32,000 nt of DNA from Haloferax volcanii DS2 (GTDB lineage: Archaea > Halobacteriota > Halobacteria > Halobacteriales > Haloferacaceae): NCBI RefSeq assembly GCF_000025685.1, contig NC_013967.1:1140001-1172000 (forward strand), read 5' to 3'. Of the stretch, positions 16,486-25,916 are shown piece after piece (the stretch's first letter is position 1; every line of letters begins with the position of its first letter). The notes beneath the pieces were generated by a model. The model had not been told where the DNA came from. It saw only the letters and a list, made by a program, of their open reading frames with translations, and did no database searches. Position numbers and translations under genes: made by a program.

Positions 16486-16605
16486 TCGGGTCGTCGGGGC
16501 GAAGCGGCCACGACGACTCGACCGGCCGAAACGCACCGCGATATCGCTGACCGAGCGCGTCATCGACGCTGGCCACCGTTGGGACAGTTCGAGAGACCAA
16601 CACGC

Positions 16606-16620
16606 AAAGTATTATTAAAT
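16606..16620 (+). promoter_or_regulatory. TATA-like box for the 16643 gene
   Basis: AAAGTATTATTAAAT ends 23 nt before the ATG at 16643. It overlaps the ATG at 16619 used in the track, which argues against that start. Confidence 0.45.
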
Positions 16621-16642: not shown

Positions 16643-17356
16643 ATGGATTCGGGAGGTGACACGGACATCGCCGTGACCGAGGACGCGTCCACGTTTCAAC
16701 TCGGACTGGACGACCTCAAGCGGCGAGGGAGCGCGCTTCTGGTCGTCGGGTCGGTCCCGACTGAACTCTACTCGCGCGCGTCCAAACAGATGCTCGGTGC
16801 CCCCGACGAGCCGCGACGCCGTCTGTTAGTTCTCAACGACTCGACGCCGCTCGCCGACCGACTCGACGACGACATCCAGCGCACCAAAGAGTGGACGCGC
16901 GTGGTTCGGTACTCGACGCTCGAACGGAGCGCGGCGGCATCGTCGTCTCCCGACGCCGTGCCGACCGCTGCGGACACCTACGAGCGCCGGGTTGGCGGCG
17001 GTCTCGGTCAGCTCGGTACGGAACTCGCCAACGACGTGACCGAGTTCGACAGCCTCTCCGGCGGGCTCTCTCCGGCCGAACTCCGCGTCGCGTTCGACTG
17101 CCTGCCGTCACTCCTCTCGCGGTACCAGCGAGACCAGGTGTTTCGGTTCCTCCACGTCATGACCAGCCACGTCCGCGCCCGAAACGGGATGGTCCACGTC
17201 TGGTCGCCCGGGGACCGCGAAGACGAGCGCACCCGGCTGCTCGAACCGCTGTTCGACGCCGTCGTCGAACTCGACGTCGAGGGCACGGAGGCTCGCCAGC
17301 GCTGGCATCTCCGGCGGCGAGACGCCTCCTCCGGCTGGTTTCCGTTGGAGTCGTGA
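16643..17356 (+). CDS. Conserved-looking haloarchaeal protein, possible degenerate RecA/KaiC-like fold without Walker A (237 aa)
   Basis: The pattern LDDLKRRGSALLVVGSVPTELY (strand plus a loop where the P-loop would be), ELRVAFDCLPSLL (Walker-B-like strand) and VFRFLHVMTSHVRARNGMVHVW resembles KaiC/RecA-type signalling ATPases that have lost GxxGxGKT. This assignment is by eye only. Confidence 0.65.
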   Translation: MDSGGDTDIAVTEDASTFQLGLDDLKRRGSALLVVGSVPTELYSRASKQMLGAPDEPRRRLLVLNDSTPLADRLDDDIQRTKEWTRVVRYSTLERSAAASSSPDAVPTAADTYERRVGGGLGQLGTELANDVTEFDSLSGGLSPAELRVAFDCLPSLLSRYQRDQVFRFLHVMTSHVRARNGMVHVWSPGDREDERTRLLEPLFDAVVELDVEGTEARQRWHLRRRDASSGWFPLES

Positions 17357-17406
17357 ATCTCGCACGACCAGTACGCTTTTCACCTTAATCGTGTCACGTA
17401 GACACA

Positions 17407-19534
17407 ATGGAACCGTCCGGGCAGGACCAGCGGGCTGACGCGTCTTCCGCGTTGGAAGTCGGTTTTTCGCTCCCTTCAGATGGCACGGGGTTGGTCGTTC
17501 GAGACAACATCGAACGCCACCAGTTCATGCTTCGAACGCCGTCGTCAGTCGCGCCGGAGCCGACCGACCGACGCCGGTTCTCGCTCCCGACGGACGCCGC
17601 GGTCCGCATCGAGACCGACCGTATCGGGTTGGCCGCGAACACGGTCGTCTGCGTCCGCGACGAGGCGGGGTCGATGCTCGCACAGGTCGACCAGCAGGGT
17701 CGCGAGGAACTCGACGCGGCGACGTACAGCATCGAGCTTTTCGGCGCGGTCAAGACGTATCTCCGAGTCGACGGGGCAGTGACCGTCGACGCGCAGCCGC
17801 TCGAAACCGTGCTCTCGTTCGAGGAGTCCCAGACGGTGTTCGTCGGCGCGCGGTCGTCCCACGAGAGCCCCGCGGCGACGATTACGACGACCGACGACCC
17901 GCTCGACGTGATGGAGGCCGTCTCGGCGTTCAGCTCCGCGCTCAAGACCACGAGCGTCGAGCGGTCGTACCCGACGCTCCGGGGCCACCCGCCGCTTCTC
18001 GAACTGGGCGACGAACTCGACATCCCGGCGGAACTCCGCGTCCCCGACACCGGCGTCCGAATCGAACTCCCGCCGACGCTGAGTCACGTCTTCGTGGCGA
18101 CGCCGCTGGCGTACTATCTCGGCGCGAGGCTCGTCCCCGGCGACTCGCCCCGACTCGTCACCGAAGGGGGGTTCGTCCACGACTTCGACGGCCCACACGG
18201 GTTCGAGGAGGCGGTCGCGCGCGCTCAAGCGCACGTTCTTCCTCGACTGCGTCGTTCGGACGGAGGGCATCTACGACGTGCCGCTCCACGAGCGCCAGAC
18301 CGTCGAGTCGCGGACGGATATCGACGCCGAGGGGCTGTACGACGCGCCGCTCGACGAACGGCTCGCGGCGTACTTCGAGCTTCCGTACGACCAGATTGCC
18401 GACCTCGTCCCGGAGTGGAAGCTGACGACGCACGTCGCGCCGCAGACCGACAACGTCGAACTGCTCCCCTTCGTCACGAACGACCTCGCGGTCGTCCGGA
18501 CCCCGTCCGGGACCGAAGTCCCGCACTCGGAGGTGCAGGCGGCCGTCGTCGACGATTTCCTCCGAGACGACGCCGACGCCGAGGACATCGACGCCGAGAC
18601 CGTCAGGAGCGCCGGCGCGACGACGCCGAGCGAGACGTACGTCAAGCCCAGTTCGACCGATTCGGTCGAGCAGGCGTGGATTAGCGACGGAACGCCCGTC
18701 GGCGCGAGCAAGACCACGCCCGCCGCCTATCGGAACCGCCTCCAGCGCGAACCGGCGCAGGGTGATATCGGTATCACGGTCGTCTGTAACGACCCCGAGA
18801 TGCTCGACGAGACCGACATCGTCGACGAGGTGTACGGCTCGCGCGACGGACTGTCGTTCGACGTCGACGCCCACTACGACCTCAGCGGGGCGGAGCTTCG
18901 GCAGACGCTCGCGGAGCCGACCGACTTCCTCCACTACATCGGCCACATCGACGACGACGGCTTCCAGTGCCGCGACGGCAGGGTCGACGCGGAGACGCTC
19001 GACCACGTCGGAACGGGCGCGTTCTTCCTCAACGCGTGCCAGTCGTACGACCAAGGACTCGCGCTCGTCGAGGCCGGCGCTATCGGCGGTATCGTCACGT
19101 TCAGCGAGGTCATCAACAGTCAGGCGGTCGGCGTGGGCCGCACGCTGGCCCGACTGCTCAACGGCGGGTTCCCGCTCCAAGCGTCGCTCGACGTGGTCCG
19201 AATCGACAGCGATGTCGCACACCAGTACGGCGTCGTCGGGGACGGCGGGCTGTCAGTTGTCCAGGCAGAGAGTGGGGTCGCGGTGCTCTGCGAGGTCGAA
19301 TCCCTCGATAGCGACACTTACGAATTGGCGTATAATGCGTACCCGACATCACGGAGCGGACTGGGTTCGTTGATAATCCCTGATCTACCGGGGAACACCG
19401 AGTACTTTCTCTCGTCGCAACCGCTCTCGAAGGTTAACCTATCGACTCAGGAGCTACGAGACTTCCTCGCGCTAGAACAAATTCCGGTTATCTACGACGA
19501 TACCGTCTACTGGGATTGCGAATTCCTCGCGTAA
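17407..19534 (+). pseudogene. Caspase/CHAT-like His-Cys protein (about 708 aa if repaired), interrupted by a +1/-2 frameshift near 18216..18224
   Basis: Frame 1 (17407 onward) is acidic and protein-like up to ...GFEEAVARA, then turns into Arg-rich junk. Frame 2 is protein-like from LKRTFFLDCVVRTEGIYDV (18224) to the stop at 19534. The C-terminal core ITVVCND...FLHYIGH (His codon 18944..18946)...AFFLNACQS (Cys codon 19037..19039)...GAIGGIVTFSEVINSQAVGVGRTLARLL matches the CHAT/caspase order and spacing. Confidence 0.7.
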
Positions 19535-19675
19535 TTACGGCCCGTAGATGATTCCCGTGTTTCCGGCCGCCACGCTGCCGGCCTGCGAGAGCAGGAGCGT
19601 GAGCGTGAACAGGACGCCCATCATGCGGGGGTTCTGGCGGAGGTACGTTACCATCTGGTTGCTGTCGTCGGACAT
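19535..19675 (-). CDS. Unannotated small membrane protein (46 aa)
   Basis: My translation is MSDDSNQMVTYLRQNPRMMGVLFTLTLLLSQAGSVAAGNTGIIYGP, with one TM helix. It is below the track size cutoff. A strong TATA box lies 25 nt upstream, and the stop directly abuts the stop of the convergent CHAT-like gene. Confidence 0.55.
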   Translation of the reverse strand: MSDDSNQMVTYLRQNPRMMGVLFTLTLLLSQAGSVAAGNTGIIYGP

Positions 19676-19700
19676 GTGCACTTACCCCAAGGCGCGTGCA

Positions 19701-19715
19701 GAAATTATAATTTTT
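19701..19715 (-). promoter_or_regulatory. TATA box for the 46 aa gene
   Basis: The minus strand reads AAAAATTATAATTTC, ending 25 nt before the ATG at 19675. Confidence 0.5.
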
Positions 19716-19896
19716 CGTGTATATCTGATATGAAATTAACTTAATTAACGGAGCGGGTGTCGCAAGTAACCGTCAGTCTGGCGAACGGTTCCCGTAACGG
19801 CGTGCAAACTACCCGTACGCTGCACGGGCTACGCGTCGGCTACGAGAACGGAGACGAGAGAAGACGGTCGGCGTCCGAAACGGTTGCCCGGTCTGG

Positions 19897-20487
19897 TCAG
19901 GAGTTGTCGATGTCGGCCTCGCCGCCGATGTCTCGGTACACCGCGGAGATTCCTTCGGTATCGTCGAGTTGCCCGAGCGTCTCGTCGAGTTCGCGCCGGA
20001 GCTCGGTCAGGCGGGCGGTGAGCCGCTGGTACTCCTCGTTTTCTTCCAGCGCCGCCTCGTCTTTCTCCGACTCTAACAGCGCCTTCTTCGACGCGAGGGA
20101 AAACAGGTCTTGGATACCCACGTCGTAGGCGTTTCGCAAGATGAGGTTAGAGACGGTCTCGGTCAGCGCTTCGCGCGAGACGGGTTTGACGAGGTAGTCG
20201 TCGAAGCCCATCGCGATGATGTCGAAGTCGGGTTCGACCGCGGTCACCATGGCGACGCGGCACTCGAAGCCACGGTCTCGAATCTCCGAGAGCGCCTCGT
20301 CGCCCGAGAGGTCGGGCATCCGACGGTCGAGGAGAACAACGTCAACCTCGTCGTCGAGCTTATCGAGCGCCTCGCGGCCGCCGTAGGCGACACGAACGCC
20401 GTAGTCGTTCCTAAGCCAGGTTGCGTACAGATCGGCGAGGTCAGGCTCATCTTCAACGATGAGCACCAGTGGCTGTTCTGCGCTCAT
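19897..20487 (-). CDS. Response regulator with receiver domain plus HalX domain (196 aa)
   Basis: LIVEDEPDLADLY...VVLLDRRMPDLSGDE...DDYLVKP (REC) is followed by a helical C-terminal region typical of HalX. Confidence 0.9.
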   Translation of the reverse strand: MSAEQPLVLIVEDEPDLADLYATWLRNDYGVRVAYGGREALDKLDDEVDVVLLDRRMPDLSGDEALSEIRDRGFECRVAMVTAVEPDFDIIAMGFDDYLVKPVSREALTETVSNLILRNAYDVGIQDLFSLASKKALLESEKDEAALEENEEYQRLTARLTELRRELDETLGQLDDTEGISAVYRDIGGEADIDNS

Positions 20488-25739: not shown

Positions 25740-25916
25740 GGGGCTGTGGCCAAGCCCGGCATGGCGACTGACTCCAGAGGCTTGGCGCCCGGGACGACAC
25801 TCCAGCTGATATACTGAGCGACCGACTGATCATCGGTCGTGTTGACGACCCTCTGGAGTTCCGAGGTGCCCACCGGAGATATCAGTCGATCGGGGGTTCA
25901 AATCCCTCCGGCCCCA
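25740..25916 (+). tRNA. tRNA-Trp (anticodon CCA at 25774..25776) with a 103 nt intron at 25778..25880
   Basis: Folded by hand. Acceptor GGGGCUG / CGGCCCC; D stem GCCA / UGGC; anticodon stem ACUGA (25767..71) / UCAGU (25882..86); loop CUCCAGA after splicing; T arm GGGGG-UUCAAAU-CCCUC; discriminator A at 25916. Exons are 38 + 36 nt, and CCA is not encoded. Confidence 0.92.
25778..25880 (+). ncRNA. Intron-encoded box C/D-like guide RNA for 2'-O-methylation of C34 and U39 of tRNA-Trp
   Basis: Guide 25802..25813 lies directly upstream of CTGA (25814..17), and A25809, the 5th nt upstream of the box, pairs with U39 (25882). Guide 25849..25860 (CCCTCTGGAGTT) lies upstream of the variant box CCGA (25861..64), and G25856, again the 5th nt upstream, pairs with C34 (25774). 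A GACGAC-type box-C-like element precedes each guide. Confidence 0.8.

Follow-up and report, generated by a model that had tools for sequence, protein, structure and literature searches.

In a 32,000-nucleotide (nt) stretch of Haloferax volcanii DS2 DNA, hereafter the window, to which all coordinates refer, we found a neighbourhood of three genes, A, B and D, that recurs in other haloarchaea. The overall picture that we favour, with moderate confidence, is of a regulated cytoplasmic protease of clan CD, encoded by gene B, with the products of D and A as its partners. Gene B (17407-19534, + strand) encodes a putative multi-domain cysteine protease with a predicted caspase fold of the CHAT/separase-like kind; its product is 709 amino acids (aa) long once repaired, and the gene is a frameshifted pseudogene in DS2. 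Upstream of it lies gene A (16643-17356, + strand; stop codon 17354-17356), whose 237-aa product, 100% identical to the H. volcanii DS2 protein ADE03060.1, belongs to DUF7504 and has a KaiC/RecA fold without a Walker A motif, which we read as a pseudo-ATPase. Gene D (19535-19675, - strand) converges on B, the stop codons of the two abutting, and would encode a DUF7503 micro-protein of 46 aa, MSDDSNQMVTYLRQNPRMMGVLFTLTLLLSQAGSVAAGNTGIIYGP, recognised by its match to Pfam PF24335, its adjacency to B and its pattern of codon-position substitutions. A first-pass annotation of this DNA had pointed to A and B, and both lie on the + strand at the coordinates it had given. Since B has more than 1500 homologues and A has 214, the two can be taken as real genes and not chance open reading frames (ORFs) of a high-GC genome (window G+C ~0.67).

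The assignment of B to the caspase fold starts from its AlphaFold2 (AF2) model, which has a mean predicted local distance difference test score (pLDDT) of 74 and block means of ~66-89 across the caspase-fold domain. This domain (aa ~440-622; 18722-19270, + strand) was recognised from Foldseek matches, sub-threshold matches to Pfam CHAT and the conservation of a His/Cys pair. Searched against the PDB with Foldseek, the model of B gave SAVED-CHAT (8tl0) as its best match at E 1.8e-6, with further matches to separase (5fby, 5fc2, 5u1s, 9hn0), gingipain R, Csx29 (7zoq), caspases 2, 3, 4 and 11 and the anti-sigma factor DdvA; the top 24 matches span E 1.8e-6 to 4e-3, most with probabilities of 1.00. 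The Pfam CHAT model (PF12770) was matched weakly by 13 of 30 B homologues, the best score being 23.0 bits (E 6.5e-5; residues 457-604 aligned to profile positions 102-273 of 289) against a gathering cut-off of 24, and the B of the window itself gave no match to it at E≤1. No match to Peptidase_C14 was obtained, either for the B of the window at E≤1 or for the 30 homologues at E≤10, and a profile of full-length B found nothing significant among PDB sequences. The sole PDB sequence match of the domain profile was to an ancestral caspase-3/6/7 over LPFDV..DLT..ELREVL; an E of 0.8 carries no significance alone, but the match sits where caspase topology predicts. Taken with the structural matches, B is predicted to be a caspase-fold, CHAT/separase-like domain protein.

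Conservation then argues that the domain is an enzyme. The first-pass annotation had named three motifs in B, FLHYIGH, AFFLNACQS and GAIGGIVTFSEVINSQAVGVGRTLARLL, all of which are found in frame 2 of the gene, and had seen in the first two a catalytic pair of the CHAT/caspase type. This proposal held up well: the order of the two residues is canonical, the fold around them is predicted to be that of a caspase, and both are near-invariant. In the model His514 (codon 18944-18946) follows the strand at 506-512 (FLHYIGH) and Cys545 (codon 19037-19039) follows the strand at 537-543 (FLLNAC). Among the best 150 representatives of the B domain, filtered to a mutual identity below 50%, H510, N543, C545 and S547 are kept in all 150, and H514 and C522 in 149. 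On these grounds B is very probably catalytic. An Asp or Glu occupies residue 463, after strand 1, in 138 of the 150, which by analogy with metacaspases hints at a preference for a basic residue at P1.

Known caspase-fold proteases resemble B to different degrees. The CHAT proteases reached by structure search (SAVED-CHAT of type III-B CRISPR, Csx29 of the type III-E Craspase, and DdvA; 8tl0, 7zoq and 8rw5) share with it a caspase-fold core, the placing of His and Cys in an 'hxHxxGH ... LxxC' context, and a large protein in which non-catalytic N-terminal domains stand ahead of the protease domain. B differs from them in lacking SAVED, TPR and transmembrane modules and in having neither CRISPR nor defence genes nearby, in its family-specific N-terminal domains, its sub-threshold CHAT score and its distribution, so far confined to haloarchaea; its partners in the neighbourhood are instead a 46-aa micro-protein and a KaiC-like pseudo-ATPase. 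Separase (family C50), matched by Foldseek through the protease domains of the Chaetomium, yeast, worm and human enzymes, is likewise a large multi-domain protease with its catalytic domain near the C-terminus, but B has no detectable sequence similarity to it and no sign of a pseudo-protease domain. Separase has a small protein partner that controls it, securin, from which DUF7503 differs in being hydrophobic. With the caspases, metacaspases and orthocaspases (C14) B shares a mirrored strand order (strand 1 VVCND; strand 2 and helix 2 LPFDV..DLT..EL; strand 3 FLHYIGH; strand 4 FLLNACQS), the weak ancestral-caspase match and the Foldseek matches to four caspases. It departs from them in matching no Peptidase_C14 model and in having no evident p20/p10 linker, the spacing from His to Cys being 31 residues.

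The family as a whole is tight and isolated. We scored 8000 candidates and retained 1516 homologues of B, nearly all of ~700 aa; those with organism names are all haloarchaeal, and at least 248 species-level haloarchaeal genomes carry the gene. None of the homologues has a precomputed Pfam domain, and repaired B has no match in Pfam, NCBIfam or PADLOC, although UniRef or NCBI already calls some orthologues 'CHAT domain-containing' or 'caspase family protein'. A profile of the caspase-fold domain, run against 1.84 billion representatives, retrieved 650 clusters at E≤1e-3, of which 562 were at E≤1e-10. Ahead of this domain stand ~440 family-specific residues, rather than the ~480 first estimated, and in the AF2 model they comprise a beta-sandwich (residues ~17-161), an alpha/beta domain with invariant motifs (~165-365) and an acidic linker of low confidence and variable length (369-437). 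Behind the alpha/beta caspase-fold domain comes a small beta-rich C-terminal domain (residues ~626-709). Two possible relationships of these domains were rejected, in each case at an hhalign probability of ≤0.6%: an internal duplication of the separase kind, with a pseudo-protease followed by a protease (middle domain against caspase-fold domain, 0.1%), and a relation of the B domains to A.

The C-terminal domain (~84 aa; 19280-19531, + strand) stands apart from the remainder of B in both variability and composition, as judged from blastn between strains and a G+C profile. Within it a mosaic segment of 169 nt (19282-19450; B aa ~626-682) gave no blastn alignment to other H. volcanii strains, whereas its flanks are ~99% identical to them and its length is the same. 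In this segment DS2 carries an allele like that of H. gibbonsii, and the other H. volcanii strains one like that of H. denitrificans. Over the final 330 nt of B, G+C is 0.42-0.59 in the window and in all 18 Haloferax loci, against ~0.68 for the remainder of the gene in the two sequences profiled.

In DS2 itself gene B is broken. The first-pass annotation had described a neighbour protein of ~708 aa, and a product of that size, 709 aa, is obtained once a 2-bp deletion is repaired; the DS2 gene as it stands is frameshifted. Frame 1 reads sensibly, as acidic protein-like sequence, to ~18216, and frame 2 takes over from 18218. The cause is the loss of one CG unit from a (CG)5 run, which is intact in two other H. 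volcanii-type contigs and in H. gibbonsii by DNA alignment and is (CG)4 in the window (18216-18223, + strand). Aligned end to end with the intact B of another H. volcanii strain, the repaired protein shows 95% identity. Because the 418-aa product of the downstream ORF, recorded on 272 contigs, is also on record from a second DS2 deposition (ELY28044.1), the lesion is a real mutation of the DS2 lineage and not a sequencing error. The event itself would be a slippage deletion, making the laboratory strain a natural null mutant for B. We considered whether the (CG)n run might be a designed phase-variation site and rejected this, the run being interrupted in H. denitrificans. Elsewhere, in a metagenome-assembled genome of Haloquadratum sp. 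(L085, 6912-9277), B is called as 644 aa, and a separate 110-aa ORF stands between it and DUF7503; this may be a second disruption or an assembly error.

The closest partner of B is the micro-protein gene. Taking loci from 80 species-level genomes, DUF7503 converges on the stop of B in 74, the predicted ORFs overlapping slightly or lying up to ~170 nt apart; of the six remaining loci, two are truncated at contig ends. The reverse test, starting from DUF7503 on metagenome contigs and counting loci with at least 400 nt beyond its stop, found B directly adjacent and convergent in 70 of 72. DUF7504 is the commonest large neighbour of B, adjoining it in 52 of the 80 loci, including those of Haloferax, Halogeometricum, Halobellus, Haloplanus, Salinigranum and Halorussus, with no other gene exceeding 35. 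It was not found beside B in the Haloarcula, Haladaptatus, Halegenticoccus and Natronococcus loci, where the upstream genes are unrelated, and an iterated hidden Markov model search of six-frame ORFs turned up no divergent DUF7504 adjacent to B in any of the 28 unlinked loci; the B-DUF7503 pair is present in every locus without DUF7504. A and B had been put forward as a two-gene module, with linkage in other genomes as a point to be checked. The linkage is there, but the pair was not the whole of it: the near-constant partner of B is the 46-aa gene that had been missed.

Three gene orders were seen. That of DS2 has A and B in tandem with D converging on B (A> B> <D); in a second (<A B> <D; L022, L041, L062, L072 and the Halalkalicoccus locus L084) A is inverted; in a third (<A D> <B; L105, L123, L125 and L126) A lies on the DUF7503 side. 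The Halalkalicoccus cluster sits in an entirely different genomic context. Because the cluster survives this reshuffling, there is good evidence that A, B and D are functionally tied, the core being B with D. We also noted that one Halobacteriaceae genome holds two copies of B (L022 and L049), both with DUF7503 and one with an adjacent DUF7504, and that in Halorussus aquaticus the locus (L028) is plasmid-borne, with a second DUF7504-like gene lying ~5 kb upstream of B. Upstream of B, Haladaptatus and Halegenticoccus share a conserved ORF of ~260-290 aa that is MBL-fold-like by eye only, and Haloarcula has a 602-aa ORF that by eye resembles a PolX/PHP polymerase.

Gene D matches DUF7503 (PF24335) at E 4e-22, with 78 bits against a cut-off of 27. 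The family consensus, MS[DE]...YLxxNP[RK]MxGVLFTLxLLLSQAGxxAAx, leads into 6-8 variable residues, after which the protein always ends in Gly-Pro. An acidic N-terminus and the NP[RK] motif precede one hydrophobic helix with a basic residue on its N-terminal side, and the whole looks like a micro-protein of one helix or a signal-like peptide. Among Haloferax copies, third codon positions carry roughly twice as many substitutions as first or second positions, an excess that supports translation, and D is thus probably translated. The tail alleles GIIYGP, SVIYGP and GVIYGP (19538-19565, compared with L001-L017 and L081) segregate in Haloferax with the allele type of the B C-terminal domain, and the variable regions of the two genes are encoded side by side.

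The description of A as a 237-aa protein with a KaiC/RecA-like layout and no P-loop was borne out on every line followed. It matches DUF7504 (PF24336) over the entire profile (positions 1-179 of 179; E 1.5e-55, 188.9 bits against a cut-off of 27), its AF2 model, built with 30 homologues, has a pLDDT of 88, and all 50 Foldseek matches listed from the PDB are KaiC (E 3e-8 to 7e-7, template modelling (TM) score ~0.52). Neither the GxxGxGK[ST] nor the Walker A motif GxxxxGK[ST] was found in A or in the 30 aligned homologues; in these DUF7504 members a conserved VVGSVPxExY, with no Lys-Ser/Thr, takes the place of the P-loop after strand 1. No Pfam KaiC or ATPase model was matched, the only matches being to DUF7504 and, at E 0.09, DUF7090, and a PDB search with the sequence profile of A gave nothing significant. 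The protein is a single domain of ~240 aa with a variable low-complexity insert, and some databases label its homologues 'RecA-superfamily ATPase, KaiC/GvpD'. Its likeness to the KaiC-like archaeal ATPases, GvpD included, lies in the KaiC-domain fold; the absence of Walker A, the single short domain and the lack of a Pfam KaiC match set it apart from that group, which was surveyed by Makarova, Galperin and Koonin in 2017 (as cited in PMC6393860).

Each of the two larger genes had been credited with a TATA-like element of its own, and both elements are present and conserved in an alignment of 10 Haloferax species, unlike their flanks. For A the invariant block is AACACGCAAAGTATTATTAAAT (16599-16620, + strand), containing the TATA-like TATTATTAAA at 16610-16619, 24-33 nt ahead of the ATG at 16643; DNA further upstream is not conserved. 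Another in-frame ATG at 16619 lies inside the TATA box, and its frame is not kept in other Haloferax species, and for these reasons we place the start of A at 16643. The block ahead of B (17367-17396, + strand), a promoter-like element in the A-B intergenic region, is likewise invariant while neighbouring DNA varies, and carries TTTTCA at 17377-17382, ~25-30 nt ahead of the ATG at 17407. The distance from TATA to ATG of ~25-30 nt in both genes fits leaderless transcripts, as far as can be read from sequence. On the opposite strand, D probably has its promoter in an AT-rich region 5' of it (19690-19760, - strand) that contains TTATAA-like elements. Chromatin immunoprecipitation sequencing (ChIP-seq) has placed the promoter of 'HVO_1270, hypothetical protein' among the targets of TbsP (PMC11023807). 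The gene order makes HVO_1270 one of two things, D or the 3' part of B, and the AT-rich region may correspond to that peak. Beyond D lies a response regulator with receiver and HalX domains (19897-20487, - strand), which neighbours B in 35 of the 80 loci. HVO_1271, a 'receiver box response regulator' of lower abundance in quorum-sensing conditioned medium (bioRxiv 10.1101/2025.01.14.633064), is taken to be this gene from the annotation in that paper and the order of locus tags.

How might such a system work? We propose that B is an active, regulated cytoplasmic endopeptidase, in which the N-terminal domains would sense a signal or hold the substrate. DUF7503 would be its membrane-associated partner, whether as anchor, regulator or substrate, and the KaiC-like pseudo-ATPase may have been recruited in some lineages as an accessory, either an adaptor or a regulator, acting by binding and not by ATP hydrolysis. 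For a KaiC-like protein acting on protein stability there is a precedent in GvpD, which lowers the level of the activator GvpE. The system would serve cellular regulation or proteostasis rather than virus defence. Several points weigh against this proposal. Because B is a multi-domain query, its Foldseek TM-scores are low (~0.2 per query length), and the family stays below the Pfam CHAT threshold. As its loss in DS2 shows, B can be dispensed with under laboratory conditions; A and B carry separate promoter-like elements; and the low-G+C, mosaic C-terminal domain of B could suit a role in conflict. We infer the roles of DUF7503 and DUF7504 from gene adjacency, which speaks for interaction only indirectly, and a literature search found no biochemical or genetic work on the families of B, DUF7503 or DUF7504.

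Of the other explanations, the likeliest, though we consider it rather unlikely, is that A and B are neighbours through inherited gene order only, with no functional tie. The 28 of 80 loci in which A is missing beside B would fit this, as would the lack of Haloarcula, Haladaptatus and Natronococcus sequences among the 120 A homologues listed, the separate promoter-like element of B, and the partial synteny of the aminotransferase, HalX response regulator and IMP dehydrogenase (IMPDH) genes. Yet A is the most conserved neighbour of B after DUF7503, and it has been retained through inversion, on the DUF7503 side of the pair and in the unrelated context of Halalkalicoccus. It is unlikely, too, that the locus is an antiviral or abortive-infection system in which a CHAT-like protease effector is switched on by a KaiC-like partner. 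This idea draws on the closest structural matches of B, which are the CRISPR-associated CHAT proteases SAVED-CHAT and Csx29, on a C-terminal domain whose low-G+C alleles are shared across species instead of tracking them, on the loss of B in a laboratory strain and on the plasmid-borne copy in Halorussus. The surroundings speak otherwise. A defence-island context had been raised as something to look for, and none was found: PADLOC-DB 2.0 has no family matching A or B at E≤1, and the neighbours serve everyday metabolism and regulation. The H. volcanii order runs Lrp/AsnC, aminotransferase, Usp, A, B, D, HalX response regulator, TrmB and IMPDH; it is the same in three H. volcanii-type contigs and is partly common to other genera, and the locus is core chromosome, not a defence island. 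Nor does Pfam detect a nucleotide-sensor domain (SAVED, TIR or CARF), and the spread of the gene over 248 species-level genomes, with its ~700-aa architecture and local order kept, looks vertical.

A processing role is harder still to credit, and we think it quite improbable that B, by cleavage of a DUF7503 precursor or by transpeptidation, frees or alters a short peptide that might serve as a signal. The conservation of DUF7503 is indeed leader-like, in that its N-terminal and hydrophobic stretch is conserved, its tail of 6-8 residues varies and its last two residues are always Gly-Pro; its gene nearly always sits by that of a cysteine protease; and the variable parts of B and D adjoin, their alleles segregating together in Haloferax. 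Some clan-CD enzymes, such as legumain-type ligases and the glycosylphosphatidylinositol (GPI) transamidase, do process C-terminal signals. However, physical linkage alone could account for the co-segregation of alleles and would lead one to expect it, and in a partial Mantel analysis the covariation of the D tail with the B C-terminal domain (0.33) is not clearly above that with the N-terminal control part of B (0.25). Moreover, B has no membrane or export signal, whereas insertion of D with its N-terminus inside is predicted to leave its tail outside the cell, and no modification or export genes are conserved nearby. An extension of the same idea, in which the B/DUF7503 allele pairs would be specificity groups for peptide signalling or self-recognition in archaea, with the KaiC-like protein and possibly the HalX regulator in regulatory roles, we regard as a long shot. 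Finally, it is barely credible that B is a catalytically dead pseudo-protease serving as a scaffold only. Non-catalytic roles are known for some caspase-fold proteins, the family falls short of the CHAT threshold, and DdvA, a transmembrane anti-sigma factor, is among its CHAT-type structural matches; but the retention of His514, Asn543, Cys545 and Ser547 in 149-150 of 150 representatives would be hard to explain without catalysis.

Parts of this account were already known, namely the kinds of fold, the uncharacterised Pfam families DUF7503 and DUF7504, and the automatic CHAT or caspase naming of some B orthologues. The earlier suggestion that the pairing was undescribed thus holds in part: a literature search on DUF7503, DUF7504, HVO_1268, HVO_1269 and CHAT domain with Haloferax found no paper on these genes, whereas two of the families exist in Pfam and the fold had been named for some orthologues. 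What is new is a haloarchaeal family of predicted caspase-fold proteases with its own architecture, a near-obligate micro-protein, a recurrent KaiC-like pseudo-ATPase and a loss in the reference strain; the link of DUF7503 and DUF7504 to a caspase-fold protein is established here from gene neighbourhoods. The accessions PF24335 and PF24336 are consecutive although the 2.1-kb gene B lies between the two genes, which suggests that these families were built along the DS2 proteome and that B was skipped as a pseudogene. Its pseudogene state in DS2 would explain why there is no Pfam family for B, and it was probably overlooked partly for that reason.

The literature on caspase-like activity in Haloferax states that clear caspase homologues are lacking in archaeal genomes (PMC3615174), a statement that is qualified by the presence of B, with its putative dyad intact, in at least 248 species-level haloarchaeal genomes. 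B cannot explain the published activity itself, since that was measured in DS70, a DS2 derivative, and B is broken in the DS2 lineage. For experiment the lesion is an advantage, DS2 being a natural null in which one added CG dinucleotide would give a clean gain-of-function comparison. More broadly, B with its 46-aa partner and KaiC-like pseudo-ATPase may offer a route to the control of prokaryotic CHAT-type proteases outside CRISPR and defence.

One further feature of the window lies away from the locus. Rfam reports a tRNA at 25740-25916 (+ strand; 44.4 bits) whose 177-nt span was missed by ARAGORN, pointing to a long intron. H. volcanii has a tRNA-Trp gene with an intron that harbours a box C/D guide, and the gene found here may be that one.

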